Part shown: positions 2,531-49,500 of the stretch, piece after piece | Numbering within the stretch: the first letter of the stretch is position 1 | How the letters are laid out: each line of letters opens with the position of its first letter | Assembly (NCBI GenBank): GCA_021814695.1 | Contig: JAKAHY010000002.1 | Coordinates: 8,920-72,919 of the forward strand | DNA: 64,000 bases | Source of the DNA: a bacterium | Lineage (GTDB): Bacteria; Patescibacteriota; Minisyncoccia; UBA6257; JAGOQP01 | Reading direction: 5' to 3' | Notes under the pieces: generated by a model | What the model saw: the letters and a program-made list of their open reading frames with translations, nothing else | Told to the model about the DNA's origin: nothing | The model's database searches: none | Made by a program: the position numbers and the translations under genes

Positions 2531-2671
2531 ATTATCTATAATTATATGGCCCTCCTTCGCATAAAGCTACGGAGGACTCACTACTCGCACCATAAAACTC
2601 CCCAGATGGGGAGTTTTATTGCAATGCTTCTTGTGCAAGGAGTGCTTGCACTACGAAGCCTTGGCGAAGTA
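2531..2671 (-). other. Hairpin-rich leader ('type B' motif) between the tmRNA and the GIY-YIG ORF
   Basis: It contains CTTCGCCAAGGCTTCGTAGTGCAAGC, a terminator-like AAAACTCCCC-atct-GGGGAGTTTT, and CCTCCGTAGCTTTATGCGAAGGAGG. The first and last motifs recur after tRNA-Gly(UCC), at 47838-47943 and 48066-48174. Confidence 0.6.
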
Positions 2672-2988
2672 GTGGAGATGGCGAGAGTTGAACTCGCGTC
2701 CAGAAAGAGGGATTGAAAGCGTCTACGGGCGTATCTTCTTTTGGAAGCTGATTTGCTTTCTGATTGTCCCTACGGATACGAAAGCGCTTTCCGTGGGTAA
2801 GCCTCAAATATAACACCGGCGATTTCCCCATGAGACATCGGGAGCCGATGGCTTACGCACGAACTAAAAAGTTCTTAAGCGTATGCAAGTGCTACATTTC
2901 TGTTAGCAGATTTGTTTTGGCGGATTTACAAGTCGCCGCTTGACCCGCAACTTTCAAAGAACTCTATCTGTCAAAGCCCAGCATCCCC
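2672..2988 (-). ncRNA. ssrA: tmRNA (SsrA), about 317 nt
   Basis: The 5' GGGGATGCTGGGCTTTGAC pairs with the 3' ...CATCTCCAC, giving G3:U70. The T arm is GCGAG-TTCAACT-CTCGC. An internal tag frame GCT AAC AGA AAT GTA GCA CTT GCA TAC GCT TAA encodes ANRNVALAYA* (2875-2907), which resembles E. coli ANDENYALAA. It is adjacent to smpB. Confidence 0.88.
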
Positions 2989-3426: not shown

Positions 3427-3469
3427 CTGTTTATTTATGATAGTGCCTTGTGGGATTTTTTTGCAAGCG

Positions 3470-3480
3470 ATGTGATATAA
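3470..3480 (+). promoter_or_regulatory. Extended -10 promoter TGTGATATAAT (copy 1 of 4)
   Basis: TGTGATATAAT sits within a conserved GCAAGCGATGTGATATAATGAAACAAAT block, 18 nt before ATG 3499. No Shine-Dalgarno sequence is present. Confidence 0.65.
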
Positions 3481-3498
3481 TGAAACAAATAAAAAACT

Positions 3499-5643: not shown

Positions 5644-5657
5644 AAATTTAAAATAAA

Positions 5658-5685
5658 GCCCCCTGTAAATACAGGGGGCTTTTTG
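5658..5685 (+). terminator. Rho-independent terminator
   Basis: AGCCCCCTGT-aaat-ACAGGGGGCT followed by TTTT. Confidence 0.8.
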
Positions 5686-5687
5686 AA

Positions 5688-5698
5688 TGTGATATAAT
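5688..5698 (+). promoter_or_regulatory. Extended -10 promoter TGTGATATAAT (copy 2)
   Basis: This is the same 11-mer. The hexamer ends 7 nt before ATG 5706, which implies a leaderless or nearly leaderless mRNA. Confidence 0.6.
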
Positions 5699-5705
5699 GA
5701 AACAA

Positions 5706-8321
5706 ATGAAAAAAACATTACTCATCGGGTTTATTGTGGTCGGCATTGTAAGCTTTTCGGCATTTACCGCGCATGCTCAGTCGGTCAATTATCTTAGTAA
5801 ATTTTTTGCAGATGTCTACGGAGCGTTTTTTGGGAATTCCCAAACGCAAAAAGTTGACGCCCAAACAGTGGGTAATGGAACACTTACTATTCATGCTCAG
5901 ATATGTCAGACGCTCGGGAATTTCGAAAATCCAAGCAGTGCGACCTGTTCTGGTACTCCTCGCGACCCCAATTCTACGGAGTCTCCGTTATTTGTTTATG
6001 ATGTCCAGCGCATAGTTGGGAATGGAGCGAGCGCTCAAGTTACCACAGTTCTTTCAGGTATCGGTCCCGGACAAAGTTATTCGTTACCGGCGAATACTCC
6101 AAACGCTAGTAATAATAACAGAGATGAGTACGTGATTGTGTTTAAGGGGGCACCGACAAATTATTTGTACGTGAGACAAGGAGGAAATTTTGATTTGCCC
6201 TATAAATTTTCAATTTCTTCCGGACAAAATACTCAAGTAAATATTCCTTATGTTATTTATACGGCGATTGAATCAACGGGTCCTGTTGGCACTACTGTTA
6301 CCGCCGATATTGTTGATGGCAATGGAAATTTTGTCAGAGCGCTGACGGCTTCAGAAATTCAATCGGTATCCTTTGACATCCAGCATTCGGTTCCGGCCAC
6401 CGGAGGATATGTCGGATCGCATGCGAACAATTTTGATACTCAAGTTTCTTCGGGAAAATTAAATACTTCATATCAGCTTGCGACCTATGTCCATTCCGGT
6501 TCAATTTTGACAAATATTAAGCCACCATCCGGTTACGTAGTCAGATCAATTAAGCCGGGAACATATTTTGATCCTACTGATGACGTTACTATTCATTTTA
6601 CCAAGTCTCCTGTTTCGTCTCAGGTTCAAAAAGTTGATCAAATGCTCTATGTTCCTAATGGAATTAGCTATGTAAAAAAAATAGCTCAAACATATTCGGA
6701 CAATGAATACAAATATTCGAATCTTGACGTTGATTTATTTGCTTATTATGGAAACAATAATCGTCCTTTTCCCTTGAACTGGACAGTTGCCAAATATTCG
6801 GGAGTTCCTTATTTGTTTATGAATGGAGCAGGAAAGATAGTTATTTATAATATTTCCGATCCTAAAAATCCCAAACAAGTTAGTGAATATGTTCTTTCCG
6901 GTTTGGAAAAATTTAATCAATACAAAGATCGTCAGGGAAATACTTATGGACAGTGTTCTCCTAACCAAGAAGGTACTCATGATTTTATAACTGGAGCCGG
7001 TAAAGTTTTTGCTCTTGATGATTCCCCTTATCTTTTGATTGACATTCAGAGACCGGGTGGGCCAGGCCCTGGAGGGACGGCAGTTTTGTCCTTAGATCCT
7101 TCAACTATGGCCATAACCGCCTATCCTCAATGGACCGAGTGTAACAGTGGTCAAGATACTCCCGGAACCGCTTTCGGAATGTATAAAGGAAGTGACGGAA
7201 ATACTTATTTTATTTCCCAATTCCCGAATAATGCATATGATACGGGTGGAGTAGATACCGGGAATATTGGTATTTACACAATCAATTCTGCTGGTATTGC
7301 CAATAAAGTTGTCGTTCTCAGCGGAATGTCCGGGATTGCTCCGAGTTTGGATTATTCTAATGGAACAATCTCTGTTGTTTCCGTTGGAAGTAAAAAATAT
7401 CTTATTGGTAATGGAAAATCATCTATCGCAAACATAAATTCGACCAGTGCACCAATTTATATTTACGATATTTCCAATCCAAAAAATATAATCAAAATCA
7501 ATCAACAGATCACGGTGTCTACGTCTGGGTCCGGCAGATTAAAAATTGACGAACAAGCCAATCGTATGTATGTTCAGTCATCCATTCCAAATCCTGCCGC
7601 AACATCAACTTCGTACACCATCCCCAAAACATTACCTATTTGGCAGGTATATGACTTGAGTGTTTTGCCCAGTACTCCAAAATTAATTGCTACTTATAAC
7701 AAACCAACCGACCTACTTAATTCAAGTCAAGTGAATGCTGATTTTTCTCAAATTACCAAGAGATTAAATATTGCATCGTCAGGTAATCTTGTGGATATAA
7801 ATAATTCTTCTTTCACTTACGGCGCCTACGGATATTCTTCTTCACTCCAGTTGATAAATGTTTCAAATAATTTAGCTTATATATCACTGTATACAAACGG
7901 AAAAAACCCTTGGGATACGATTGCCAATCAAGCCGGAGTAACGGACGGAAGCGAATACGGGACCAATGCTATTCAATTTATAGTTGACGTGTCCAATGCG
8001 TCCAGTCCCAAAATACTTGGAATGATATTCGGGCATACGGAATATTCTGCTTACGGACTTTCCGCCGGCGGATGGTTTGATGTTCCTCTTTACGGAAGTA
8101 TCTATAACTATAACGGATATATTTACCGAGCCAATTTCCGCATCGCTGATGTATGGAAATTGGGGAATCCTCCGGCCCAAAGTACGGGAGGTGCTGGAAG
8201 TGGGGCTGGTGCGAGCGGCACTGGAACTACCGAAGGAGGATCTGCGCCATCATCAGTTCAATCTCCATTTTCTTTCAGTTCTCTTTTGAAGATATTCCAG
8301 AGAGTGTTTAATAATCAATAA
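5706..8321 (+). CDS. Secreted/surface LVIVD-repeat protein, paralogue 2
   Basis: I prefer the start at MKKTLLIG, by analogy with its paralogues and because ATG 5697 lies inside the -10 box. Repeats include IVIYNISDPKNPKQVS, IYIYDISNPKNIIKI and FIVDVSNASSPKIL. A G/S/A/T linker is followed by the tail SPFSFSSLLKIFQRVFNNQ. Confidence 0.8.
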   Translation: MKKTLLIGFIVVGIVSFSAFTAHAQSVNYLSKFFADVYGAFFGNSQTQKVDAQTVGNGTLTIHAQICQTLGNFENPSSATCSGTPRDPNSTESPLFVYDVQRIVGNGASAQVTTVLSGIGPGQSYSLPANTPNASNNNRDEYVIVFKGAPTNYLYVRQGGNFDLPYKFSISSGQNTQVNIPYVIYTAIESTGPVGTTVTADIVDGNGNFVRALTASEIQSVSFDIQHSVPATGGYVGSHANNFDTQVSSGKLNTSYQLATYVHSGSILTNIKPPSGYVVRSIKPGTYFDPTDDVTIHFTKSPVSSQVQKVDQMLYVPNGISYVKKIAQTYSDNEYKYSNLDVDLFAYYGNNNRPFPLNWTVAKYSGVPYLFMNGAGKIVIYNISDPKNPKQVSEYVLSGLEKFNQYKDRQGNTYGQCSPNQEGTHDFITGAGKVFALDDSPYLLIDIQRPGGPGPGGTAVLSLDPSTMAITAYPQWTECNSGQDTPGTAFGMYKGSDGNTYFISQFPNNAYDTGGVDTGNIGIYTINSAGIANKVVVLSGMSGIAPSLDYSNGTISVVSVGSKKYLIGNGKSSIANINSTSAPIYIYDISNPKNIIKINQQITVSTSGSGRLKIDEQANRMYVQSSIPNPAATSTSYTIPKTLPIWQVYDLSVLPSTPKLIATYNKPTDLLNSSQVNADFSQITKRLNIASSGNLVDINNSSFTYGAYGYSSSLQLINVSNNLAYISLYTNGKNPWDTIANQAGVTDGSEYGTNAIQFIVDVSNASSPKILGMIFGHTEYSAYGLSAGGWFDVPLYGSIYNYNGYIYRANFRIADVWKLGNPPAQSTGGAGSGAGASGTGTTEGGSAPSSVQSPFSFSSLLKIFQRVFNNQ

Positions 8322-8333
8322 TAATTTGAAACA

Positions 8334-8358
8334 ATCCCCCTAGCTGGGGGATTTTTTT
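8334..8358 (+). terminator. Rho-independent terminator
   Basis: ATCCCCC-tagct-GGGGGAT followed by TTTTTT. Confidence 0.8.
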
Positions 8359-8366
8359 GCAAGCAA

Positions 8367-8377
8367 TGTGATATAAT
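8367..8377 (+). promoter_or_regulatory. Extended -10 promoter TGTGATATAAT (copy 3)
   Basis: GCAAGCAATGTGATATAATAAAACAAAT lies 19 nt before ATG 8397. Confidence 0.65.
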
Positions 8378-8396
8378 AAAACAAATAAAAATAACC

Positions 8397-10580
8397 ATGA
8401 AAAAATATTCATTAATTGTGATTATCTTACTTGTTGTTGCAAGTATAGGGATTACCGCTATCTTTTCAAGTCAAGTGTCGATAACCGGATTTCTTTTGAG
8501 CGTTTACTCAACTGTTTCGGGGAGCAATCAAATACAGAGAGTAAATGCACAAACGACAGGCCAAGGAACCATATTATTCCAAGGCCAATTCGGTCATCTT
8601 GAATCGACCGGAAAGGTCACTACCGGAATTTCGGGCTTATCCGGACTTCCGGTGATGAAATTTGTTAAAGACCGTGACCTATCTAGCGATGAAAAAAATC
8701 AGATTAGAGTGGATGTTATTGAACATAACACTCCTTTTGAATTTGTAGTTGCAAAAAATATTTCGCTTGGAGAGGGTGTTAATTTTAATATTCCCGTAGG
8801 TTCGACATATAGATATAGTTTTTATGTTCACCCCGACTCGATTCCCTCCGGATGGGTTTATTATTCCGGTTGTTTAGAGACCGATGGGAATGTTTCGGTA
8901 CTGGCCGGTCAGCAAAGTACTTGCAGCATAGGATTTTATTTAAAGCCCGAAACAATCTCACCCCCTCCGGTCACATCAACATCTACGATCACGTCTACTC
9001 CTTCGGTAGGTGTTTCGGGAACTGTTGTCGGTGAAGATGCCAGCGCAGGATCGTTGCAGTTTGTAAAAAACGTTTTGGATTTAAGCTCACAAAGAAAGGG
9101 CATTATTTATGGAGTTTTGGACGCAAGAACCGTTAATTTGTATGGAAAAAATCTTCTGATAGTTGCTAGAGGTGGAGCTTACTCTGCTACCACTCCAACC
9201 TGGCATATGCTTGTTTATGATATAACCGATCCGCTTGCCCCGGTTCTTTTGAAGGATAATGATATGTCCGGAAGTGGCATAATCTATAGTTCTCCAATGA
9301 CCGGTTTGGCAGTGCTTGATGGCTTTAATTATGTATTTGTCCGTGGAAATGTCGGTTACGGTTCGTTTAAAATTAATCAGGACGGAACTGCGTCTCTTGT
9401 GAAAAGCTATAAATATTCTGAAGTTCAGCAGATACAGACAGATTTAATCAGGGGATTGTTCAACGGTCTGGATGGAAATATATACGGCTACGGAGGGTTT
9501 GTGCAGGATGGAGGACTCGTGCTTTATAACGTTTCCGATCCCGCTAATATTATTCAAGTTGGAACGTATACTAATGGTCTTGAACCAGCGATTGCCATCT
9601 ATGGACAAATTGGATTGAATCGCCAGAGCACTTGGGGCGTTGTTAAAGAAGGAGGCAAACTTTATCTTATTGCTCATGCGGACCAGTTGGTTCTGCGCCT
9701 TCATACGGATTATGATGGAATGATTTATGTTTTTGATGTGTCCAATCCGGCAAGTCCGCAGCTTTCACATATCTATAAAATGTCCAGCTCCTTTAATCAC
9801 CTTCCTTCCGATATGACTTCGTATGAGAAGATGTTTCTTTACGGAGGAGAAGCTAATATATCGGTTGATCCAATATCAAATAGAGTATTTGATTTTTACA
9901 GAACGGTTTTTGATTGGCAGGGACCCAATCAGCTTAAGATAAAAGACATTCCTAAAGGAGCCTTGTTTCGTTATAGAAATGGAATAGCCGTTCTTTCAAT
10001 AGGAATCGATGGTTCTTTGAAATCAAGTTCCAGTAACATATTATTGTGCGAAAGAATAGCCATTCAAGATAATGGGACGTCAGGCGAAGATAAATGTGAT
10101 ACAAAGAGTCCCGAAACGGTTGGGGGATATTATAGTTCCAGTCTTTATGGAAACAGGAATCCTCAAGAAAATTATAACGGAGTATTTCTTCTTGGCGACG
10201 TGAATAATGTCGGACATGTAGGGCTGTTAAAAAGCGATGGTAGTTTTGTTATCATACCCGATCCAACCGGAGAAATGCTTAAATTCAAATCTGTCTTGGC
10301 TGACCCGTCGTATTATTCCGATCCTGGTTTTCGTTCGTCTCCAATCAATGGCATTGTCACTCAAGTTGATAGCAAAACCTTTGCAATATTTCAGATTGAT
10401 AATTATTCCATAAGTGTTACAAAGCTAAATCTATCACAATCCATAACGAGCGTAACACAAAAATCTTCGCCACCTACCACAAATGCCCCTAGTTCATTAA
10501 ATACATCATCTCCTACTCAGACTCCATTTTCCTTCAGCTCGCTCCTGAGAATATTTCAGAGGGTGTTCAATAGTCAGTAA
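8397..10580 (+). CDS. Secreted/surface LVIVD-repeat protein, paralogue 3
   Basis: It is collinear with paralogue 1 along its whole length. Repeats include LVLYNVSDPANIIQVG and MIYVFDVSNPASPQLS. The tail is TPFSFSSLLRIFQRVFNSQ. Confidence 0.8.
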   Translation: MKKYSLIVIILLVVASIGITAIFSSQVSITGFLLSVYSTVSGSNQIQRVNAQTTGQGTILFQGQFGHLESTGKVTTGISGLSGLPVMKFVKDRDLSSDEKNQIRVDVIEHNTPFEFVVAKNISLGEGVNFNIPVGSTYRYSFYVHPDSIPSGWVYYSGCLETDGNVSVLAGQQSTCSIGFYLKPETISPPPVTSTSTITSTPSVGVSGTVVGEDASAGSLQFVKNVLDLSSQRKGIIYGVLDARTVNLYGKNLLIVARGGAYSATTPTWHMLVYDITDPLAPVLLKDNDMSGSGIIYSSPMTGLAVLDGFNYVFVRGNVGYGSFKINQDGTASLVKSYKYSEVQQIQTDLIRGLFNGLDGNIYGYGGFVQDGGLVLYNVSDPANIIQVGTYTNGLEPAIAIYGQIGLNRQSTWGVVKEGGKLYLIAHADQLVLRLHTDYDGMIYVFDVSNPASPQLSHIYKMSSSFNHLPSDMTSYEKMFLYGGEANISVDPISNRVFDFYRTVFDWQGPNQLKIKDIPKGALFRYRNGIAVLSIGIDGSLKSSSSNILLCERIAIQDNGTSGEDKCDTKSPETVGGYYSSSLYGNRNPQENYNGVFLLGDVNNVGHVGLLKSDGSFVIIPDPTGEMLKFKSVLADPSYYSDPGFRSSPINGIVTQVDSKTFAIFQIDNYSISVTKLNLSQSITSVTQKSSPPTTNAPSSLNTSSPTQTPFSFSSLLRIFQRVFNSQ

Positions 10581-10668: not shown

Positions 10669-13600
10669 ATGTTGAGAAATCTTAAACACTTTAATCCGCC
10701 GGAAATTGAGGAAAAAGTTTTACAGCTTTGGAAAGAAAAAGGGATATTTCAAAAAACACTCAAAGTTCCAAAAGGAAAAAAGGCCCTGCCTACCGGCAGG
10801 CAGGCAAAAATATTTCGGTTTTGGGAAGGTCCACCGACAGCCAATGGCCGTCCCGGAATTCATCATATTTTAGCCCGTTCTTTTAAGGACGTTGTTTTGC
10901 GTTTTAAAACGATGCAAGGGTATACGGTTCCCCGTAAGGGTGGTTGGGATACTCATGGATTGCCCGTTGAAATCCAGGTTGAAAAGCAGCTCGGATTTAA
11001 AACAAAAAAAGATATAGAAGATTACGGAATAGCCGCATTCAACCAAAAATGTAAAGAATCAGTCTGGCTTTATCAAAGCGAATGGGAAAAATTGACCGAA
11101 CGCATGGGTTTTTGGCTGGATTTGAAAAATCCTTATGTCACATACCACAAAGATTACATAGAGTCGCTTTGGTGGATCATCAAACAAGTTTGGGATAAAG
11201 GGTTGATGTATCAAGGGCATAAAGTGGTTCCTTGGTGTACTCGCTGCGGGACAGCTCTTTCTTCCCATGAATTGGCTCAAGGATACAAAGAGCTTACCGA
11301 TACTTCTGTTTACATAAAATTTAAACTTCTTCCAAAACAAAAAATCGGTTCTTTTATAACCGATGATAAAACATACATCTTATCCTGGACGACGACTCCT
11401 TGGACTTTGCCCGGAAACGTCGCTTTGGCAGTCGGAAATAAAATCAAATATATTGCGGCAAAAATCGGAGGAGAGACTTTTATTATTGCGGAAGATCTTG
11501 CCGGATCGGTTTTGGGATCGGAAAATCATAAAGTTATCAATGAATTTAAAGGCGAGTCGATTTCAGGGAAAGAATACGCCCCACTTTTTGAAATTGCGGC
11601 ATTAAAAAAACCGGAATCGTACAAGGTATATCCGGCTAAATTTGTGACAACCACCGATGGAACGGGGGTGGTGCACACGGCCGTAATGTACGGAGAGGAC
11701 GATTATAACCTGGGAAAAGAAGTCGGACTTCCTCAGCATCATACGGTTACCGAACAAGGAACTTTCACAAAAGACGTTAAAGGATTTGAAGGGATGTACG
11801 TCAAAGCCAAGGAGACCGAGGATAAGATACTAGATTATCTAAAGAAAAATAATTTCCTTTTGCAAACACAGGCTTATACCCATGAATATCCTCATTGCTG
11901 GAGATGTGGAACTCCGCTTTTGTATTACGCGCGCAGTTCATGGTTTGTAGCGATGTCGAAACTGAAAGATAATCTGATCGAAAGCAACCAGGGAACCAAC
12001 TGGGTTCCGGCACATATCAAAGAGGGCAGATATGGAGAATGGCTCTCCGAAATTAAAGATTGGAATTTTTCACGGGAAAGATATTGGGGCACCCCACTGC
12101 CGATCTGGACGTGCGAGAATTGTGGAAACCATAAAGCTGTTGGAAGTTATAAAGAGCTTTCGGAACATCTTCCTTCTAGTACCAACAGATATATTCTTGT
12201 CCGTCATGGAGAAGCGGGGCAAAATGTTTCCAATATAATCAACTGCGACCCCAAAGATAAGGATAAATACCCGTTAACAACCAATGGAATAATCCAGGCG
12301 AAGAGAACTTCCCTGAGCCTCAAGAAAAAAATAAAAAAAATAGACGCGATTATCTCGTCGGATTTTATTCGGACAAAGGAAACCGCAAAAATTATCGGCG
12401 ATGAATTTGGAATAAAGAAAATAATCACCGATCCGCTTTTGAGGGAAGTTAACATGGGAGATTTTAACGGGGACAATGTTTCTCGTTACCACGAGTACTT
12501 TTCTTCGCTTGAAGAAAAATTTATGAAACGGACCCCTAACGGAGAAAACCTCAGAGATCTGGCCGCAAGAAGCTACGATTTTATACAAAAATGTGAAAAA
12601 AAATACAGCGGGAAAACTATTGTTGTGGTAGGGCATGAATATCCGCTGTGGATGGCGGAGACCGTTCTTTCTGGATGGAGTCAGGAAGAATCGGTGTCGG
12701 AAAAAGAAAAAAGAGGTCCCGATTTTATAGAAGTCGGAGGATTTGATTCCGTTACTTTTGTTCCGGCATCAAGAGATGAACAGGGAATCTGTGATTATCA
12801 TAAGCCATATGTGGATTCAATCAGCATCCCTTGCGAAAAATGCGGAAAAAAGATGAATCGAGTTAAAGAAGTTGCCGACGTATGGTTTGATTCGGGGTCA
12901 ATGCCATTTGCCCAAGATCATTATCCTTTTGAGAAGGGTGATAAAGTCGGGAAAGCGCCCCAATCGTTTCCGGCCGATTATATCTGTGAGGCAGTCGATC
13001 AGACCCGCGGGTGGTTTTACACTCTTATGGCCGTCTCTACATTATTGGATTATGAAACGCCGTATAAAAACGTCGTTTGCCTAGGGCATATAAACGACAA
13101 GCATGGACAGAAAATGTCCAAATCAAAAGGGAACATTGTTGATCCATGGATGATAATAGATAAATATGGCATTGATGCCGTTAGGTGGTATTTTTACACC
13201 GTTAATGCTCCGGGGGAGCCGAAGAATTTTGACGAGAATGAGGTTGCTAAAGTACTGAGAAAATTCAGCATGACTCTTTATAATTCGTTCGCGTTTTTGG
13301 CGCTTTATGGAAAACAGAAGGTAAGTATCCAAAAGAAACCTTCATCGCCGAATATTTTGGACAGGTGGATTTTGGCAAGGCTAAATCAAACAACTGTCGG
13401 AGTTTCGGACAAAATGGACGCATATGATTTCTTGGCTACCGGACAAATAATAGAATCGTTTATTGACGATCTTTCCAGATGGTACATTCGCCGATCGAGA
13501 AAGAGATTCCAAAAAATTTCGGATAAATCGGATTGGGGTACGGCGACCGGTGTTTTGGCGTATGTTTTGGCCGAATTTTCAAAAGTGATCGCTCCCTTTA

Positions 13601-14223
13601 CTCCATTTTTCGCCGAAGCTCTTTACAGATCCATAGCCGAATTTTGTTCGTTTAGCGCAAAAGAATCCGTTCATCTCGAATCATGGCCGGAGGGCAGGGT
13701 TTTTAATGACGATGCGGTTATGTCGGAAGCCATGAAACAGATAAGAGACTACGCCAGTGCTGTTTTGGCAAAAAGAGCCGAAGTTGGAATCAAAGTGCGG
13801 CAGCCTTTGAGCTTGTTGAAAATAAGAAGCATTAAGTCTAAAGAAAAAGACTCTAAACAATTATTAGAAGTGTTAAGGGATGAAGTTAACGTCAAAGAAG
13901 TTGTGATTGATCCAAAAATAGAAAATGAATTTGAGTTGGATATCAACATCACTCCGGAACTTAAAGCCGAAGGAATTTTGAGGGAAATAGCCCGGACAAT
14001 TCAGGAATTGAGACAAAGTTCGGCATGTGTTCCCAAGGATAAAATAGAAGTTCGCATTTCCGGACCTGCCGACATTGAAGCGGTGGTCAAAAACGGACAA
14101 GCCACGCTTTGCCAATACGTTAACGCCAAAAATATTCTTTTCGGTAAGAGCGGTAAATTTGATTCCGAAATTGAAACCAAAATTGATTCGTCAAAAATTT
14201 GGATAGGTTTAAGAAAAATATAA
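10669..14223 (+). CDS. ileS: Isoleucine--tRNA ligase (type-2-like) with an inserted histidine-phosphatase-family domain
   Basis: It has EGPPTANGRPGIHH, KMSKSKGN, the editing-domain region, and WTCENCG ... CEKCGKKMNRV..DVWFDSGSMP. Between the two Cys pairs (about nt 12175-12790) lie RYILVRHGEAGQN, SSDFIRTKETA, REVNMGDFNG and VVGHEYPL, which is the RHG...H signature of histidine phosphatases. Confidence 0.93.
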   Translation: MLRNLKHFNPPEIEEKVLQLWKEKGIFQKTLKVPKGKKALPTGRQAKIFRFWEGPPTANGRPGIHHILARSFKDVVLRFKTMQGYTVPRKGGWDTHGLPVEIQVEKQLGFKTKKDIEDYGIAAFNQKCKESVWLYQSEWEKLTERMGFWLDLKNPYVTYHKDYIESLWWIIKQVWDKGLMYQGHKVVPWCTRCGTALSSHELAQGYKELTDTSVYIKFKLLPKQKIGSFITDDKTYILSWTTTPWTLPGNVALAVGNKIKYIAAKIGGETFIIAEDLAGSVLGSENHKVINEFKGESISGKEYAPLFEIAALKKPESYKVYPAKFVTTTDGTGVVHTAVMYGEDDYNLGKEVGLPQHHTVTEQGTFTKDVKGFEGMYVKAKETEDKILDYLKKNNFLLQTQAYTHEYPHCWRCGTPLLYYARSSWFVAMSKLKDNLIESNQGTNWVPAHIKEGRYGEWLSEIKDWNFSRERYWGTPLPIWTCENCGNHKAVGSYKELSEHLPSSTNRYILVRHGEAGQNVSNIINCDPKDKDKYPLTTNGIIQAKRTSLSLKKKIKKIDAIISSDFIRTKETAKIIGDEFGIKKIITDPLLREVNMGDFNGDNVSRYHEYFSSLEEKFMKRTPNGENLRDLAARSYDFIQKCEKKYSGKTIVVVGHEYPLWMAETVLSGWSQEESVSEKEKRGPDFIEVGGFDSVTFVPASRDEQGICDYHKPYVDSISIPCEKCGKKMNRVKEVADVWFDSGSMPFAQDHYPFEKGDKVGKAPQSFPADYICEAVDQTRGWFYTLMAVSTLLDYETPYKNVVCLGHINDKHGQKMSKSKGNIVDPWMIIDKYGIDAVRWYFYTVNAPGEPKNFDENEVAKVLRKFSMTLYNSFAFLALYGKQKVSIQKKPSSPNILDRWILARLNQTTVGVSDKMDAYDFLATGQIIESFIDDLSRWYIRRSRKRFQKISDKSDWGTATGVLAYVLAEFSKVIAPFTPFFAEALYRSIAEFCSFSAKESVHLESWPEGRVFNDDAVMSEAMKQIRDYASAVLAKRAEVGIKVRQPLSLLKIRSIKSKEKDSKQLLEVLRDEVNVKEVVIDPKIENEFELDINITPELKAEGILREIARTIQELRQSSACVPKDKIEVRISGPADIEAVVKNGQATLCQYVNAKNILFGKSGKFDSEIETKIDSSKIWIGLRKI

Positions 14224-29233: not shown

Positions 29234-30157
29234 ATGCTTTTTTCGCGAATAACAAAAAAAGATATTTTGATATTTATCGTCGTTTTCCTGGTTTTGGGCG
29301 CTATTTTTGTTTTACATAAGCCCACATCGTTTATCGGAGATAATTATGCCGTTGTGGAAAATTCGAGCATCCCCAAACTTCAGGTGGCTACCTCATTTCC
29401 ATTGGCGGCTGATTGGATAAATTCCGTCGGCAAAGACCGGGTTCAGGTACAGGTTTTTGCATCACCCACGGATGATGGGCTGATTCAGTGGCTAAAAAAG
29501 CCCTCTTCGGATGCTCCACAGGAGACCAAAGTTTTTGTTTCTATGGGAAATAATTTTGACCAATGGGCCCAAGAACTGTCCGGGGGAGATCCCAAAATAA
29601 AAATTGATGTTATGATTTTGAGTAATTTTGCGTCTCCGGTTAAAACATATCCTACTTTATCGGGTTCTTCTAAGAACGCTGAAAATTCCTCACCTTACTA
29701 TTGGCTTTCACTTGAGAATGTCCGGGAGTCAGTTCAGGGCATTGCCCGGGAATTTGGAAAAGTTGATGCTGCCGATAGGGAATATTTTATAAACAATGCA
29801 TATGAATATTCTGTCAGACTCGATTCGCTGCTGCACGAAACTGTGGATGTTTTGGGAAGTATCAGAAATACCGCAGTGGCACTTGATGGCGCCAGATGGG
29901 CTCCTTTTGTAGACAGTTTGCAGTTGCGGGTTGTCGGGTTGTTTGATTCAAACTCCACAGAAGACATCAAGGCTATTCTTAAAAAAAATAAAATCACCAC
30001 AGTTGTGACCGATAGCGATTCGAACGGCCGATTTTTGGAACCGGCATTATCCGGGACGACCGTATCGGTTGCTGTCATAGATCCCTGGGGACTTAATAGC
30101 AATAACTACGTGGATTTTATGCGCTCTAATATTTCGGAACTGATGAAAGCGCTTTAG
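29234..30157 (+). CDS. ZnuA/TroA-like solute-binding-protein homologue lacking the metal-ligand histidines
   Basis: VATSFPLAADWINSVGKDRVQVQV aligns with IATTIFPVFDIARNIVGDKIQVIQV of the SBP at 43054. SPH and DPHYW of that protein are replaced here by SPTDDG and SPYYW. No ABC partner genes are adjacent. Confidence 0.5.
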   Translation: MLFSRITKKDILIFIVVFLVLGAIFVLHKPTSFIGDNYAVVENSSIPKLQVATSFPLAADWINSVGKDRVQVQVFASPTDDGLIQWLKKPSSDAPQETKVFVSMGNNFDQWAQELSGGDPKIKIDVMILSNFASPVKTYPTLSGSSKNAENSSPYYWLSLENVRESVQGIAREFGKVDAADREYFINNAYEYSVRLDSLLHETVDVLGSIRNTAVALDGARWAPFVDSLQLRVVGLFDSNSTEDIKAILKKNKITTVVTDSDSNGRFLEPALSGTTVSVAVIDPWGLNSNNYVDFMRSNISELMKAL

Positions 30158-30227
30158 TTTTTATAAAAAAGTTTATTAACATGATGGACTTTTTTTAAAA
30201 ATCACGATAACATAAACTCACAAATTT

Positions 30228-30299
30228 GCGGGTATCGTATAGCGGCTATTATACTTCCTTGCCAAGGAAGAGATACGGGTCCGACTCCCGTTACCCGCT
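30228..30299 (+). tRNA. tRNA-Gly (anticodon GCC)
   Basis: The acceptor stem is GCGGGTA/TACCCGC. The anticodon arm is CTTCC-TTGCCAA-GGAAG. The T arm is ACGGG-TCCGACT-CCCGT. CCA is not encoded. The T loop has C at position 55. Confidence 0.9.
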
Positions 30300-30337
30300 C
30301 AAAAACAAAAATTACCCAAACGGGTAATTTTTGTTTT

Positions 30338-30466
30338 GGGTGTTGACGGGGTAGGATGCGGGGTGGTCGAGGGGCTGCAAGCCCCTCGTGTTGGAAATTA
30401 TTCAAAACCGAGGGTTTTGAAGGAGCGAATATAATGAGCGACGTCCGATTTCCCGTTACCCGCTCA
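30338..30466 (+). repeat. tRNA-3'-end-capped structured repeat ('type A' unit), Gly(GCC) copy
   Basis: It reads GGGGTGGT, P1 CGAGGGGCT-gca-AGCCCCTCG, TGTTGGAAA, P3 TTCAAAACC-gag-GGTTTTGAA, then ...GAGCGACGTCCGATTTCCCGTTACCCGCTCA. The last ~20 nt repeat the tRNA-Gly 3' end. Confidence 0.8.
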
Positions 30467-30502
30467 AAAACAAAAAGCACCACAAGGGTGTTTTTTGTTT
30501 TC

Positions 30503-30653
30503 TGTCCGCCCGGAAGGGAGTCTCACGTCGCTCCGACATTGCGTCGGAGCTCCCAAGACACCCTCGGTTTCTTGACGCTCCTCCGGAGCTTTTTCCTACA
30601 CGGGAGATTAAGCATCTCCCGACCCCTCTCTATTCAATTCCTTGTTGACGAAC
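30503..30653 (-). repeat. Type A unit, Lys copy 2
   Basis: On the minus strand it reads GGAATTGAATAGAGAGGGGT, P1 CGGGAGAT-gctta-ATCTCCCG, TGTAGGAAAAAG, CTCC-gga-GGAG, CAAGAAACC-gag-GGTGTCTTG, GCTCCGAC-gcaat-GTCGGAGC, then GACGTGAGACTCCCTTCCGGGCGGACA. Confidence 0.8.
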
Positions 30654-30689
30654 AAAACAAAAAATATTCACAAAGGATATTTCTTATTT

Positions 30690-30827
30690 TGTCCGCCCGG
30701 AAGGGAATCTCACGTCGCTCCGACCTTGCGTCGGAGCTCCTTAAAACCATTCGGTTTTAATATTTCCTCCACGGAAAACCTTCGGTTTCCCGACCCCATC
30801 CGATTTGATTCCTTTACTGACGAATAT
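30690..30827 (-). repeat. Type A unit, Lys copy 1
   Basis: On the minus strand it reads GGAATCAAATCGGATGGGGT, P1 CGGGAAACC-gaa-GGTTTTCCG, TGGAGGAAA, AAAACC-gaat-GGTTTT, GCTCCGAC-gcaag-GTCGGAGC, then GACGTGAGATTCCCTTCCGGGCGGACA. Confidence 0.8.
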
Positions 30828-30865
30828 AAAACAAAAAGCACCACAAGGGTGTTTTTTGTTTTCTG

Positions 30866-30938
30866 TCCGCCCGGAAGGGATCGAACCTTCGACCGTCTCC
30901 TTAAGAGGGAGCTGCTCTACCAGCTGAGCTACGGGCGG
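30866..30938 (-). tRNA. tRNA-Lys (anticodon CTT)
   Basis: The acceptor stem is CCGCCCG/CGGGCGG (C1:G72). The D arm is GCTC-AGCTGGTA-GAGC. The anticodon loop is CTCTTAA. The T arm is GAAGG-TTCGATC-CCTTC. CCA is not encoded. Confidence 0.88.
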
Positions 30939-30978
30939 TACGAAACCATTCTGCCATCAAAAAAATAATTTTGCAATC

Positions 30979-31920
30979 TTATGGCTGAAAAATCGGTTGG
31001 GTTTGTCCATCAATTGAAAGCGTTATGGATTTTATTGTTGGAAATTGAAGGAGTGTTTGTTTTATTTGTGCCACACGCATTGCCATGGAACATGAACCGC
31101 CCCCAGATTCTGTTAGCGAATTAAAATCGGCATGCGCATTGTCGTTGCTGTCTATGGAAAGAGAATTTAAATCAGAACCTGGTGGCAAGGAGCTTGTATA
31201 TCCGGAATCACTTTCGTCTTGAGTTGGCCCGGCAAAAAGCAATTCCAGTGCTGCCGTCGCTATTTTGGGAGTGGTTATTATCTGTCTTTCTACGGGAACA
31301 ACTTCTTTGCAGGTTTTTTCCGGCTTTATTTTATTGTTGGCAAAATAAACCTTGATTGAAACGAATTCCGGCATGGACGATTTGGAAGAGCTTACTTGTA
31401 AAGATTGGATAATTTTTAATGATTCATCAACCGGTTTCTTCAGATGAGCAATGACAAAACCGGGTGTTTGGGCAAAAATTATCCATTCGTCGGTAATATT
31501 TGAATAAGTAGCAACATCATTCGTCTTATAAGAAAAATTATTTAAAGAAGGTAAACAATCCGGACATTGTGACTTATATTGATTTTCCCAAAAATCTTTT
31601 GCCGAAGGGAAACCGGCAGCACCGTTATAGAAAAAAGAAACCGTATTTATCTGATTATTTGAAAGATTTTCTATGGTAACAAGCGATGGCAATGTAACTT
31701 TTGACTTAAGAGAAAATTTATCTTTGGGGTATGAAAATTGGTAAGCGATATTTTGAAAATCGCCTTCATATCCGACAACGTAAGAGTTTGAGAAGGTTGC
31801 CAGTTCCGGAGAAGGAGATGGGGCATTAACGGTTGAAATGGGATTATTTTTTATGAATCCAAAATAAGCGGCTATTGTCGCCAATAAAAATAATAAAATA
31901 AAAATAATTGTTTTCTTCAT
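30979..31920 (-). CDS. Membrane-anchored protein with a C-terminal GerMN-like domain
   Basis: It has an N-terminal TM helix. The C-terminal region ...ALELLFAGPT..E...GYTSSLP.G..L.S..I....A..DF.. is GerMN (germane) domain-like. Confidence 0.6.
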   Translation of the reverse strand: MKKTIIFILLFLLATIAAYFGFIKNNPISTVNAPSPSPELATFSNSYVVGYEGDFQNIAYQFSYPKDKFSLKSKVTLPSLVTIENLSNNQINTVSFFYNGAAGFPSAKDFWENQYKSQCPDCLPSLNNFSYKTNDVATYSNITDEWIIFAQTPGFVIAHLKKPVDESLKIIQSLQVSSSKSSMPEFVSIKVYFANNKIKPEKTCKEVVPVERQIITTPKIATAALELLFAGPTQDESDSGYTSSLPPGSDLNSLSIDSNDNAHADFNSLTESGGGSCSMAMRVAQIKQTLLQFPTIKSITLSIDGQTQPIFQP

Positions 31921-47837: not shown

Positions 47838-47960
47838 AAAATATCCCGACAAGTGAGGGGATTTTGTATAGTCCTTCTTCGCATAAAGCTTCGAAGGACA
47901 CTTTTCGTCTGGCTTGCACTTCGTAGCTCGCCAGGGCGAAGAAGTGAGCGGGTAAGGGGA
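47838..47960 (-). repeat. 123-nt direct repeat, copy 1 (tRNA-Gly 3' end + type B motif)
   Basis: By eye it is identical to 48066-48188, at an offset of 228 nt. On the minus strand it reads CCCCTTACCCGCTCA, then CTTCTTCGCCCTGGCGAGCTACGAAGTGCAAGC...GTCCTTCGAAGCTTTATGCGAAGAAGGAC...ATCCCCTCACTTGTCGGGAT. Confidence 0.85.
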
Positions 47961-48062
47961 AGTCTTACGCTCACCCCCGACCCCCGCTTAAGAAACCTTC
48001 GGGTTTCTTACGTCCCTATTTTCCAACACGGGGGTTCGCATTCGACTCCCAAACTCACCCAC
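47945..48062 (-). repeat. Type A unit, Gly(UCC) copy (variant arrangement)
   Basis: On the minus strand it reads GGGAGTCG-aatg-CGAACCCCCG, TGTTGGAAAATA, TAAGAAACC-cgaa-GGTTTCTTA, then GGGGGTCGGGGGTGAGCGTAAGACTTCCCCTTACCCGCTCA. Confidence 0.7.
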
Positions 48063-48065
48063 AAA

Positions 48066-48188
48066 AAAATATCCCGACAAGTGAGGGGATTTTGTATAGT
48101 CCTTCTTCGCATAAAGCTTCGAAGGACACTTTTCGTCTGGCTTGCACTTCGTAGCTCGCCAGGGCGAAGAAGTGAGCGGGTAAGGGGA
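48066..48188 (-). repeat. 123-nt direct repeat, copy 2 (overlaps the genuine tRNA-Gly(UCC) 3' end)
   Basis: See copy 1. Its upstream end is the real T-stem and acceptor 3' strand of the tRNA at 48175-48245. Confidence 0.85.
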
Positions 48189-48245
48189 GTCGGACCCCTC
48201 TCATCAGCTTGGAAAGCTGAGGTAATACCGATATACGATACCCGC
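48175..48245 (-). tRNA. tRNA-Gly (anticodon TCC)
   Basis: The acceptor stem is GCGGGTA/TACCCGC. The anticodon arm is TCAGC-TTTCCAA-GCTGA. The T arm is AGGGG-TCCGACT-CCCCT, again with C at position 55. CCA is not encoded. Confidence 0.85.
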
Positions 48246-48941: not shown

Positions 48942-49014
48942 GGGCCGTTAGCTTAGTTGGTAGAGCGCCTCGTTTGCAACGAGGAGGTCACCGGTTCGAA
49001 TCCGGTACGGTCCA
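48942..49014 (+). tRNA. tRNA-Ala (anticodon TGC)
   Basis: The acceptor stem is GGGCCGT/ACGGTCC with G3:U70. The anticodon arm is CCTCG-TTTGCAA-CGAGG. The T arm is ACCGG-TTCGAAT-CCGGT. Confidence 0.92.
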
Positions 49015-49052
49015 CATAACAAAAAAATTGCCTAGCGCAATTTTTTTGTTAT

Positions 49053-49184
49053 GATGAATCAGGGTCGGTTTGAATATTTAGGGGTCGGGGTATTTGTAAA
49101 TACCCCGAGTAAGAAAATTTGAGAAACCGTGGGTTTCTCACGAACGAATGAAATGAGTGAGGTGAGATTCCGGTACGGTCCACA
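49053..49184 (+). repeat. Type A unit, Ala(UGC) copy
   Basis: It reads GGTTTGAATATTTAGGGGT, P1 CGGGGTATTT-gta-AAATACCCCG, AGTAAGAAA, TGAGAAACC-gtg-GGTTTCTCA, then ...GAGGTGAGATTCCGGTACGGTCCACA. The last 19 nt repeat the tRNA-Ala 3' end. It ends 4 nt before ATG 49189. Confidence 0.8.
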
Positions 49185-49188
49185 AAAT

Positions 49189-49500
49189 ATGAAAAAATCA
49201 GAATATCTTTTGAGAAGTTTTATAAATGCGGCTGGAGTATTTGTTTATGTAGCATTGATTGCCTGGCTGGGTTTTAACAGCAAAACAATTTTTGGAGAAG
49301 CTCCAAGTTTTATTGCGCCATTGTTTATGCTTCTTTTGTTTGTCGTGTCGGCTTGTATAACGGGCCTATTGGTCTTGGGTAAGCCAATTCTTATGTATTT
49401 GAACAATCAGAGAAGAGAGGCCATTGTTTTATTTTCGGTTACTCTTAGCTGGCTCGTATTGTTTTTGGCGATTATCGCGACTGCTCTTGCCTTAAGATAA
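49189..49500 (+). CDS. Small membrane protein (3 TM), unknown function
   Basis: I prefer the start at MKKSEYLL. The upstream 20 codons of ORF 49129 are a translation of the type A repeat. Confidence 0.6.
   Translation: MKKSEYLLRSFINAAGVFVYVALIAWLGFNSKTIFGEAPSFIAPLFMLLLFVVSACITGLLVLGKPILMYLNNQRREAIVLFSVTLSWLVLFLAIIATALALR

Follow-up and report, generated by a model that had tools for sequence, protein, structure and literature searches.

The window analysed here, a 64-kb stretch of DNA, carries seven small structured units downstream of six of its eight tRNAs, and each of them closes with a copy of the 3' end of the tRNA that precedes it. They belong to a protein-less structured element located just 3' of tRNA genes and of some protein genes in Patescibacteria, which apparently has not been described before; a literature search found no description of it. 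We propose, with a probability of about one half, that the units are integrated copies of a small (about 130-230 nt), non-autonomous insertion element lacking protein genes, widespread in Patescibacteria and homing to conserved gene ends. Their general order is the 3' end of the gene (copy 1), a spacer, an antisense lead, a core and a second copy of the gene 3' end (the tail). The units contain no ORF, lie directly 3' of the upstream gene and are oriented like it. ARAGORN and Rfam called only the eight tRNAs and the tmRNA in the window, without matching any unit even at E<=10. The units and their host genes, the latter called by both ARAGORN and Rfam, are the following:

30228..30300 (+): tRNA-Gly(GCC), host gene of the GlyGCC unit
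30332..30476 (+): GlyGCC unit, with a degenerate lead at about 30332-30360, core 30361-30442 and tail 30443-30466; covariance-model match of 91.6 bits
30451-30476 (+): repeat of the GlyGCC unit, a 26-nt copy of the tRNA-Gly 3' end and trailer
30467..30526 (-): tail of the Lys1 unit; 30520-30526 is a pseudo T loop, GUGAGAC, and 30467-30519 repeats the tRNA-Lys 3' end and terminator exactly over 53 nt
30527..30628 (-): core of the Lys1 unit (GGGGUCG, P1, CGUGUAGGAAA, P2, P3, GGAG, P4, CGAC), a four-way junction; covariance-model match of 39 bits, E=9e-8
30632..30643 (-): lead of the Lys1 unit, AAGGAATTGAAT / AAGGAAUUGAAU, antisense to tRNA-Lys over the T loop, the 3' strand of the T stem and a portion of the acceptor strand
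30654-30689 (-): Lys2's own, different terminator
30690..30814 (-): Lys2 unit, with lead 30803-30814, core 30714-30799, pseudo T loop 30706-30713 and a 17-nt copy of the tRNA-Lys 3' end at 30690-30706; covariance-model match of 57.9 bits
30828-30880 (-): tRNA-Lys copy 1, the 3' end from T-loop position 59 with trailer and terminator hairpin; 53-nt repeat, 100% identical to 30467-30519
30865..30938 (-): tRNA-Lys(CTT), host gene of both Lys units
35430..35501 (+): tRNA-Pro(CGG), host gene of the Pro unit
35537..35680 (+): Pro unit, with lead at about 35537-35556, core 35561-35655 and tail GUGAGAUUCCCGGCAGCCCGAC at 35659-35680; covariance-model match of 44 bits
47838..48188 (-): variant unit of type 2 at about 47945-48058, flanked by two 123-nt copies (48066-48188 and 47838-47960) that are 100% identical; weak covariance-model match of 19 bits
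48174..48245 (-): tRNA-Gly(UCC), host gene of the type-2 unit
48942..49015 (+): tRNA-Ala(UGC), host gene of the Ala unit
49056..49192 (+): Ala unit, with a degenerate lead, a core (49079-49161) substituted at conserved positions and tail GUGAGAUUCCGGUACGGUCCACA; covariance-model match of 62 bits

The two tandem units behind tRNA-Lys differ in P2, which is present in one and absent from the other, and are members of different sublineages. In the type-2 unit, each 123-nt copy comprises the tRNA-Gly(UCC) 3' end, a 108-nt trailer and a terminator, and this variant was also found 3' of a tRNA-Pro in another locus (L124). The Ala unit is a sixth type-1 unit, missing from the list given in the preliminary description of this DNA.

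The lead is about 12-20 nt long and is separated from the core by a purine-rich linker. In tRNAs, its target comprises the T loop together with the 3' strand of the T stem and a portion of the acceptor strand, and copy 1 runs from the T loop onward. In protein genes (fusA, rpsG, gap, pgk and genes for an M23 peptidase, a glycosyl hydrolase and PolX), the target is a conserved motif 6-30 codons before the stop, copy 1 is the end of the gene up to the stop codon, amounting to 18-96 nt in fusA, rpsG, gap and pgk, and the lead begins -2 to +28 nt from that codon. The genes concerned are highly expressed, and the stretches targeted in them are conserved motifs. A terminator usually lies 3' of the tail, and our search for a promoter belonging to the element itself found none.

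Direct repeats of the target 3' end, 15-123 nt long over tRNA and protein genes, flank the insert in the manner of attL and attR. Those of protein genes span 15-96 nt up to the stop (e.g., 96/96, 69/72 and 53/54 identical positions), while repeats of 53 and 123 nt in the window are 100% identical. Because these repeats reach beyond the part paired with the lead, they reflect a duplication of DNA. No second lead was found 3' of the tail; the repeat thus consists of the gene end only, and a duplication including the lead can be rejected. A conserved nucleotide preceding copy 1, namely a C at the insertion point, was considered and rejected (C 6, G 5, A 5, T 2). Each site has a lead and a tail of its own, derived from the target, and the units display neither conserved terminal inverted repeats nor the short duplications of fixed length expected of MITE or REP families.

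The two gene-end copies are not equivalent with respect to the lead, which matches copy 1, and not the tail, in 14 of the 15 units that are informative and, among tRNA units, in 28 of 31. The mean duplex energy of tRNA-unit leads is -26.8 kcal/mol with copy 1 against -18.9 kcal/mol with the tail, the non-cognate control giving -17.0 kcal/mol; for Lys1, the values are -19.6 kcal/mol with the genuine tRNA-Lys 3' part and -13.2 kcal/mol with its own tail. In older copies the tails are degraded and the leads stay complementary to the real gene. The perfect complementarity of lead and copy 1 could perhaps be kept by quasi-palindrome correction instead of selection. In the Pro unit, the tRNA 3' part, terminator and lead fold as a single long hairpin. 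A fold-back palindrome was also considered as the general origin of copy 1, spacer and lead, and was rejected because the 60-100-nt spacer of the protein-gene units is not self-complementary.

The core, about 100 nt long, is a four-way junction of the form GGGGUCG-P1-CGUGUAGGAAA-(P2)-P3-GGAG-P4-CGAC. Its sequence is strongly conserved across very divergent Patescibacteria, GGGGUCGGG being near-invariant (at least 90% conserved over 111 aligned copies). In the 111-copy alignment, which had been fitted to the covariance model's own structure, 95% of the cells are paired and changes on both sides affect 317 cells against 79 in shuffles, while slid controls collapse. P1 and P3 were predicted independently by RNAalifold. 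The core helices contain 44 G.U against 25 A.C combinations, a weak preference for the strand of folding that is partly an alignment artefact. The preliminary description had made its model depend on a junction that is fixed and not scattered, and fixed it is: the core ends with CGAC and the next base is tRNA position 53. Beyond this junction we found either an intact T loop, a conserved altered loop (GUGAGAUU, as in Lys1) or a loop broken by a mini-hairpin. Rfam in gathering mode over the whole window returned only tRNAs, the tmRNA and noise, and in E-value mode over 30100-31000 it returned no match to self-cleaving ribozyme or group I/II intron models.

The family extends well beyond the window. 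A genome scan revealed at least 120 loci, about 100 of which are genuine among the matches listed, nearly all from Patescibacteria MAGs, and the covariance model built in this analysis found 111 copies. Among 99 copies selected by pattern, the tail is the last 15-22 nt of a same-strand tRNA located 46-79 nt upstream in 31-41 cases, covering more than 16 isoacceptors. In 686 kb picked independently of the motif, 11 of 12 matches lie directly downstream of tRNAs, and 11 of 179 tRNAs (6%) are occupied. Copies from the scan are uniform in size and complete rather than randomly truncated. The units sit 3' of tRNAs, fusA, rpsG, gap, pgk, a peptidase, a glycosyl hydrolase and PolX, and not 5' of a functionally coherent set of genes as riboswitches or leaders would. 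Near-twin units (96% identical) adjoin different genes in different MAGs, and the rpsG and fusA sites recur in 12 loci from several divergent genomes. Occupancy of these two sites could reflect long residence and a host function instead of mobility.

Individual sites appear to be gained or lost. At the orthologous tRNA-Pro(CGG) site, a unit is present in 7 of 52 loci; the variants found there differ in structure between genomes, and other genomes have no unit at this position. Sites in L127 and L125 are also empty. Such polymorphism of presence and absence, together with several sublineages at one site, is the behaviour expected of mobile elements. A protein partner was sought around the units. 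Within 3 kb of units at about 95 loci among the matches listed, no recombinase, reverse transcriptase or transposase recurs, and all-against-all clustering of 634 neighbouring ORFs recovered just housekeeping synteny (fusA, rpsG, rpsL, gatA and others). Pfam annotation detected no recombinase among 28 ORFs of the window. The single exception is a large serine recombinase gene beside the unit in L022. Larger autonomous versions were considered on account of three units with a cognate repeat 1-2 kb away, one of them enclosing a serine recombinase, but these cases are too sparse to generalise.

Four other explanations have to be weighed against an insertion element. The preliminary description read the unit at 30503-30653 (-), where a core of about 100 nt precedes the tRNA-Lys 3' copy, as a tRNA 3' half whose T loop is split by an insert, which would act in trans through its acceptor 3' strand or serve as a substrate of tRNA enzymes. 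Part of its observations are correct. The 10-mer GAGAGGGGTC common to the unit and tRNA-Gly(UCC) occurs exactly twice in the window, at 30621-30630 (-) and 48193-48202 (-), where 0.06 would be expected by chance. The distal end is indeed a tRNA 3' end, since TCCCTTCCGGGCGGACA exactly copies tRNA-Lys(CTT) from T-loop position 59, and tails are exact reproductions of the 3' strands of T stem and acceptor and of the discriminator. The D and anticodon arms are absent as stated, and neither ARAGORN nor Rfam calls a tRNA or tRNA-like match in the units. From the split T arm proposed there we retain the pseudo T loop, T-stem 3' strand and acceptor 3' strand of the adjacent tRNA at the 3' end of the unit, pairable with a 5' segment across an insert of about 100 nt, but not the 5' GGGG(T) as the T-stem 5' strand. 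While single-sequence folds of some units do pair this G-rich 5' end with the CCC of the tail, comparative data reject the helix: GGGG is constant whatever the T-stem 3' strand (CCTTC, CCGGC, CCGGT and others) and does not covary with it, an outcome that the preliminary description had itself named as refuting. GGGGUCGGG is likewise unchanged where the tail is not derived from a tRNA, e.g., in ATTTGCTCATTTC after rpsG; the presence of GGGG also in units 3' of protein genes shows that it is no T-stem strand. The segment that does covary with the tail lies 8-10 nt 5' of GGGG and is antisense rather than a tRNA-like 5' half. The T loop of the tail is moreover often destroyed (GUGAGAU, or a hairpin insertion). 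Mimicry of tRNA is not the essence of a family whose core also occurs behind the stop codons of fusA, rpsG, gap, pgk and further genes, flanked by copies of the last codons. With tails decaying in older copies and leads retained, a trans-acting tRNA 3'-half mimic is hardly credible any longer. Recombination at the T loop, which the same description had also suggested, comes closest to the evidence provided that it is generalised to conserved gene 3' ends. Direct repeats of a gene 3' end are indeed a classic signature of integration, and the units might be scars of phages or islands inserted by an integrase at tRNA and gene 3' ends and later deleted, leaving the attL/attR duplicates and an arm proximal to attP. 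A related genome does contain a genuine integration scar (L121, a partial tRNA-Lys 3' of a complete tRNA-Lys), and the serine recombinase gene of L022 points the same way. Decaying attP arms would nonetheless not be expected to show compensatory base-pair changes, with junction nucleotides conserved, over more than 100 copies, nor would any single integrase family place the same core on dozens of attachment sequences. Given also the complete units of uniform size and the lack of an integrase recurring near them, we regard such scars as a very improbable source of the family.

The remaining two explanations assign the units a role as RNA. A host cis-acting module of the 3' trailer or 3'-UTR would have a core binding a factor or ligand, and alternative pairings of the lead with copy 1 or with the tail would control 3' processing, stability, termination or read-through, the local duplications being kept as the switch needs two partners. 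Conservation of the core across very divergent Patescibacteria, constant orientation and position directly after the upstream gene, the lack of a promoter of its own, the terminator usually following the tail, leads that stay complementary to the functional gene end, recurrence of the rpsG and fusA sites in 12 loci and a 1:2 / 2:3 layout of alternative pairings resembling that of attenuators are all in line with this proposal. Yet the direct repeats, up to 96-123 nt and 100% identical, exceed what pairing needs, and since the tail decays when the lead does not, a switch with two partners is not maintained. Occupancy is patchy (6% of tRNAs, 7 of 52 tRNA-Pro sites), one and the same site holds core variants that differ from genome to genome, terminators separate tandem units, and a lead paired to the T arm and the acceptor strand would disturb the folding of the very tRNA that it is supposed to serve. 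On balance we find a cis-acting module doubtful. Alternatively, the unit could serve as guide RNA to an effector (recombinase, nuclease or repressor) whose gene lies elsewhere in the genome, with the core as a protein-binding scaffold and the lead, the tail or both addressing the two strands of the host gene 3' end, as in IS110 bridge RNA or TnpB/IscB omega RNA. This would suit a scaffold whose sequence and structure are both conserved, the 12-24-nt segments matching the target on either side of it, and the many copies that a genome contains, every one fitting a target of its own. A scaffold with a 3' guide had in fact been suggested in the preliminary description; a conserved guide-like segment does exist, but it is the 5' lead and not the 3' tail. 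The guide RNAs of IS110, TnpB and IscB are encoded beside their protein, whereas no candidate effector gene is linked to any unit and no gene of the IS110, TnpB or IscB type was found near them. The target, furthermore, always lies immediately upstream of the guide, a self-targeting without obvious purpose, viral contigs searched with the pattern gave no match, and lead and tail would mask each other as they are mutually complementary. A guide RNA of this kind therefore appears improbable.

The architecture, the covariation, the distribution, the varying occupancy of sites and the preference of leads for copy 1 are observed, while mobility itself, guiding by the lead and the chemistry are inferred. 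Under the insertion-element reading that we prefer, the host gene remains intact because there are two copies of the stretch reaching from the lead target to the gene end. Copy 1 would be part of the working gene and the tail its displaced duplicate, analogous to attR. The lead would function as an internal guide whose pairing partner is copy 1, or the tail where the unit is young. Such pairing would bring the junction between gene body and copy 1 beside the junction between core and tail at the base of the core, a geometry that strand exchange would require in order to insert or excise the element, whether at the level of RNA or of single-stranded DNA. The catalyst may be the core itself or a factor encoded elsewhere, and the element is probably transcribed by read-through from its highly expressed host genes. 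Counting against this scheme, we know of no mechanism by which a new antisense lead of 12-20 nt could be written for each new target. A bolder version, which we consider unlikely, is a protein-independent mobile RNA, intron-like or viroid-like, with the four-way junction as a new ribozyme. Strand exchange guided by the lead at the gene-body/copy-1 and core/tail junctions would release a circle of about 150-230 nt (gene end, lead and core) and reseal the host RNA; the reverse reaction would insert the circle into abundant RNAs near their 3' ends, and the insertion would then be fixed in DNA. If true, such a mobile RNA would account for a duplication running from a point defined by the guide to the end of the transcript or ORF, for the choice of tRNAs and very highly expressed mRNAs as targets, for the absence of a linked protein and for the conservation of the lead over the tail.

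Several known systems share features with these units. Integrative elements of tRNA or protein-gene 3' ends (tRNA-integrating phages and islands, phage 21 and e14 in icd) likewise occupy a site in or after a conserved gene 3' end, keep the gene intact through a duplicated segment, leave a displaced direct repeat at the far end, occur in tandem and have empty sites in relatives. Unlike them, the element described here measures just about 130-230 nt, is devoid of an integrase, carries an antisense lead and RNA-type covariation, and places one conserved core on dozens of target sequences. IMEX of the CTX-phi type integrate at dif as a folded single-stranded attP using host XerCD, and carry a phage genome. 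The order would be comparable (site, element body, inverted site copy, about 90 nt, direct site copy), and the inverted and direct copies may fold into a duplex imitating the target. The CTX-phi site is fixed (dif), whereas the sites found here are arbitrary gene ends, the part of about 90 nt is a conserved four-way junction, and no recombinase was identified.

A short segment of the element complementary to the flanking target, which would align the two junctions of the element, recalls the internal guides of mobile introns (the group I IGS forming P1/P10, the group II EBS/IBS), IS110 bridge RNA and the guide bases of IS200/IS605. In contrast to these systems, the units match no group I or II model, their core is far too small, the gene is uninterrupted, no transposase or reverse transcriptase is adjacent, and a guide of 12-20 nt is combined with a target duplication. 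The group I introns reported in tRNAs of Patescibacteria lie in the anticodon loop at position 35/36 and are distinct from the element (PMC13011429). REP/BIME, ERIC, Correia and MITE sequences are similarly short, multi-copy, protein-less, intergenic, co-transcribed with their neighbours and rich in hairpins with compensatory changes, but their terminal repeats are conserved and their own, and their target duplications are short and constant in length; the units described here take their arms from each target, and their long duplication stops at the gene end. Finally, riboswitch and attenuator leaders share a conserved multi-helix junction closed by a variable stem and alternative pairings among three similar or complementary segments, although the units differ from them in lying 3' of unrelated genes, in repeats longer than pairing needs and in patchy occupancy.

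Patescibacteria possess some of the smallest bacterial genomes. If our description holds, they harbour an abundant and unrecognised class of structured nucleic-acid elements, with seven copies in this 64 kb, whose insertion site is recognised through a long target-specific antisense segment, the gene end being duplicated and the host gene preserved in the absence of a linked protein gene. The movement of protein-less elements, possibly through a new ribozyme or a recombination route guided by RNA or single-stranded DNA in bacteria, would then be open to testing, as would the reason why tRNA 3' fragments abound in these genomes. Copies of the element account for the spurious 'tRNA fragments' and the odd repeats between genes that annotations of CPR genomes contain, and the covariance model allows them to be annotated. 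An ORF beginning with MEFNKYE beside some units, considered as a small gene or leader peptide, is actually the duplicated C-terminus of EF-G.

Lys1, the minus-strand unit behind tRNA-Lys(CTT) from which the preliminary description started, consists of an antisense lead, a short purine linker separating it from a structured core, and a tail that copies the 3' end of the host gene. Its parts and the tRNA are arranged as follows:

30865-30938, minus strand, tRNA-Lys(CTT), with a hairpin (A and T runs) and two units, in that order, downstream
30643-30632, minus strand, Lys1 lead, AAGGAAUUGAAU
30628-30527, minus strand, Lys1 structured core
30526-30520, minus strand, Lys1 GUGAGAC
30519-30467, minus strand, Lys1 TCCCTTCCGGGCGGACA and terminator

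The last 53 nt of Lys1 are identical (100%) to the tRNA-Lys 3' end and its terminator (repeat D5 of the repeat search), and folding within the window joins the tRNA 3' part, terminator and lead into one long hairpin. The preliminary description had read such units as tRNA 3' halves whose T loop is split by an insert of about 100 nt, with GGGG as the T-stem 5' strand. The 10-mer common to Lys1 and tRNA-Gly(UCC) behind that reading holds as a raw observation (2 occurrences versus 0.06 expected). GGGG is the start of a near-invariant core, unchanged whatever the T stem of the attached tRNA and also present in units whose tail is not tRNA-derived; the GGGG/CCC helix is therefore rejected by the test proposed with it, co-variation of the GGGG lead with the CCC segment. 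The segment co-varying with the tail is the lead, located 8-10 nt upstream of GGUCG; its sequence is complementary to the T loop, to the 3' strand of the T stem and to some of the acceptor strand (e.g., GGAAUCGAAC).

Pattern search, repeat search and a covariance model built in this analysis revealed five to six units of one type in the window, behind tRNA-Lys (two units, from different sublineages), tRNA-Gly(GCC), tRNA-Pro(CGG) and tRNA-Ala(UGC), and one divergent type-2 unit behind tRNA-Gly(UCC). Every one of them terminates in the 3' end of the tRNA it follows. Units thus occupy 5-6 of the 8 tRNAs of the window, none being found there behind tRNA-Arg, tRNA-Ala(CGC) or tRNA-Ser.

Scanning 185,579 species genomes with the core pattern returned at least 120 loci. 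Among the matches listed, genuine copies number about 100. Nearly all of these come from MAGs of Patescibacteria (Saccharibacteria, Paceibacterota, Staskawicz-, Colwell-, Niyogi- and Jorgensenbacteria), and the rest of the list fell by chance within coding sequence from other phyla. The core pattern found nothing in viral contigs, a search of the window against Rfam returned no family for the element, and no description of it was found in the literature searched. RNAalifold predicted helices P1 and P3, with compensatory changes, from 24 cores. In our model, the core would comprise, from 5' to 3', a 3-bp closing helix GUC/GAC, P1, the conserved single strand CGUGUAGGAAA, an optional P2, P3 carrying the conserved ACCGAGGGU, GGA, a variable P4 often with tandem G.A pairs, and CGAC; its consensus is anGGGGUCGGG...CCGUGuaGGAAA...AAACCGAGgGUU...AG...GAc. 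Across 111 copies, 95% of cells are paired and changes on both sides affect 317 cells versus 79 in shuffles, a signal that collapses when partners are slid, the alignment itself having been fitted to the model.

Some window units depart from this form. The tRNA-Ala(UGC) unit (49079-49161, plus strand), absent from the preliminary description, has a partly degenerate core in which CGAGUAAGAAA replaces CGUGUAGGAAA, ACCGUGGGU replaces ACCGAGGGU and GUGAG replaces GCGAC at otherwise conserved positions; its lead is degenerate, an ORF starts 4 nt past its tail, and it is probably a decaying copy. The type-2 variant (47945-48058, minus strand; also at 2700-2860 of metagenome locus L124) has a GGAGCGAAGCGAC module 5' of P3, a GGGGUCGGGGG block near the 3' end rather than at the 5' end as in the main type, and a 5' hairpin resembling the antisense of a tRNA T arm; it may be a permuted or recombinant core form. 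On the antisense strand, at 30577-30602 and 35592-35616, the P2 hairpin with UUUUUCC after it (complementary to GGAAAAA) is scored as an intrinsic terminator, which could block antisense transcription or be a coincidence.

Units not linked to tRNAs have the same layout: copy 1 (the working gene's own 3' end, repeated directly in the tail), a spacer of 0-100 nt, antisense lead, linker, core and tail. At protein genes, copy 1 is contained in the terminal part of a long ORF, the lead begins at -2 to +28 nt relative to the stop codon, and the repeat reaches the stop (15-18 nt in rpsG, 72 nt in fusA, 61 nt in both pgk and gap; maximum 96/96 nt). Repeats start at conserved protein motifs (TFTMEF, AFAHF, NEWAY, STGGGA) in these genes and at the T loop in tRNAs. 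The repeat is longer than the stretch with which the lead pairs; copies in the window cover 53 and 123 nt, are 100% identical and extend to the terminator T run. Pairing alone therefore does not account for the repeat, which reflects duplication of DNA. Neither a second lead 3' of the tail nor a conserved base at the left repeat boundary was found. A small ORF adjoining some units was rejected as a component, being the duplicated C-terminus of EF-G.

The two gene ends are not equivalent. In 28 of 31 tRNA-linked units, the duplex of the lead with the genuine tRNA is more stable than that with the unit's tail; mean energies are -26.8 and -18.9 kcal/mol, respectively, versus -17.0 kcal/mol for non-cognate tRNAs. 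Where copy 1 and tail differ within the paired stretch, the lead matches copy 1 in 14/15 units, even though these had been selected for lead/tail pairing. In tails, the T loop is frequently of a conserved but non-canonical form (GUGAGAUU) or carries an inserted hairpin, and at loci L182 and L184 the tail is visibly degraded while the lead is perfect. Consequently, the tail resembles a by-product, and the lead seems to be the part that functions or is maintained.

Using a homologue of the window's CCA-adding enzyme, and ignoring the motif, we sampled 80 metagenome loci (686 kb). The covariance model detected 12 units, 11 of which lie 42-144 nt 3' of a same-strand tRNA, so that 11/179 tRNAs have a unit behind them. 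At the orthologous tRNA-Pro(CGG) site, 7/52 loci contain a unit; type-1 units with and without P2, a type-2 unit and units with an interrupted T loop are all represented there, and other relatives have an empty site. Units that share 96% identity adjoin different genes in different MAGs. Together with the two Lys sublineages, these observations argue for repeated gains and losses and against a fixed structure of the host.

Clustering of 634 ORFs neighbouring the units revealed no recurrent recombinase, reverse transcriptase or transposase, only housekeeping synteny, and neighbours in the window are ordinary (ZnuA-like proteins, CCA-adding enzyme, sigma factor, RNase Y, RuvB, glycolysis enzymes). 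The only recombinase adjoining a unit among the loci examined is an isolated case, a 470-aa large serine recombinase encoded between tRNA-Met and a unit (L022, 1606-3260); the tail of that unit is the 3' end of another tRNA. No promoter-like site was found 5' of the units, which are therefore probably expressed by read-through.

We propose, with a probability of about 0.5, that the unit is a small non-autonomous insertion element that homes to conserved stretches close to the 3' termini of highly expressed genes. The duplicated end would keep the host gene intact, and the element would contain a guide antisense to the same gene end. Pairing of lead and copy 1 would bring the gene-body/copy-1 junction beside the core/tail junction, a geometry suited to strand exchange (insertion or excision) on RNA or single-stranded DNA; this step and its catalyst are putative. 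Closest in working are integrative elements targeting gene 3' ends, with which the units share an att-like duplication but not an integrase. Folded attachment sites of the CTX-phi type likewise place an inverted and a direct target copy around a segment of about 90 nt. The units also resemble the internal guides of mobile introns, but match no intron model, and IS110 or IS200/605 guides, but lack an adjacent transposase. Conserved terminal repeats are missing from them as well. Since defining features of each of these families are thus absent, we rate the element as outside known kinds.

Other explanations carry less weight. A regulatory or processing module of host 3' trailers is a doubtful alternative, and an RNA akin to an intron or viroid that needs no protein and has a new ribozyme as its core is somewhat more so. 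A guide RNA for an unlinked effector seems unlikely. Scars of ordinary integrase-borne elements would leave comparable duplications, but the units contain no integrase, and we consider this origin improbable. The tRNA 3'-half mimic and 3' guide of the preliminary description are both contradicted by a tail that resembles a by-product and a lead that seems functional or maintained, which leaves the mimic very little credence.

Gene order around tRNA-Lys varies. In relatives (L121-L123, L127, L130), tRNA-Arg, tRNA-Lys and tRNA-Gly(GCC) lie on one strand beside the CCA-enzyme gene, while in the window tRNA-Gly(GCC) (30228-30300) is inverted, a Germane-domain ORF separates tRNA-Arg from tRNA-Lys, and the unit arrays of tRNA-Gly and tRNA-Lys converge on a common terminator. 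The closest relative found (L121, 440-585, minus strand) carries a full tRNA-Lys(CTT) whose acceptor stem differs, then the 3' two-thirds of another tRNA-Lys, whose 3' end is that of the window's tRNA-Lys and which lacks a structured core; the fragment represents, at the same site, a classical scar of the integrase type.

What appears to be another small structured motif, with GUCCUUCGAAGCUUUAUGCGAAGAAGGAC and CUUCGCC...UACGAAGUGCAAGC, lies within the 108-nt trailer of tRNA-Gly(UCC), present in two perfect copies:

47838-47960, minus strand, tRNA-Gly(UCC) 3' end, trailer and terminator, one copy
48066-48188, minus strand, tRNA-Gly(UCC) 3' end, trailer and terminator, other copy

Related sequence lies 3' of the tmRNA gene (2540-2672, minus strand), and in L130 (8737-8835) a similar motif (…GGAAGCUUUACGCGAAGGAGG) follows tRNA-Pro and precedes a tRNA 3'-end copy (GCAGCCCGAC). 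The motif had no Rfam match across the whole window and may represent another element family that behaves alike. Some 20 nt past tRNA-Ala(CGC) there is an orphan tRNA 3' fragment with encoded CCA (GUGGGUUCGGUUCUCGCUGGAUCUACCA; 37376-37405, plus strand), which does not match that tRNA and has no core attached. Elsewhere on the plus strand, an isoleucyl/class-I tRNA synthetase ORF (10669-14223) is interrupted at residues 509-673 by a histidine-phosphatase (His_Phos_1) domain, and three consecutive large paralogous ORFs of 714, 874 and 727 aa (3449-10580) share near-identical upstream sequences (repeats D1, D7, D10, D11, D15-D17 and D20).
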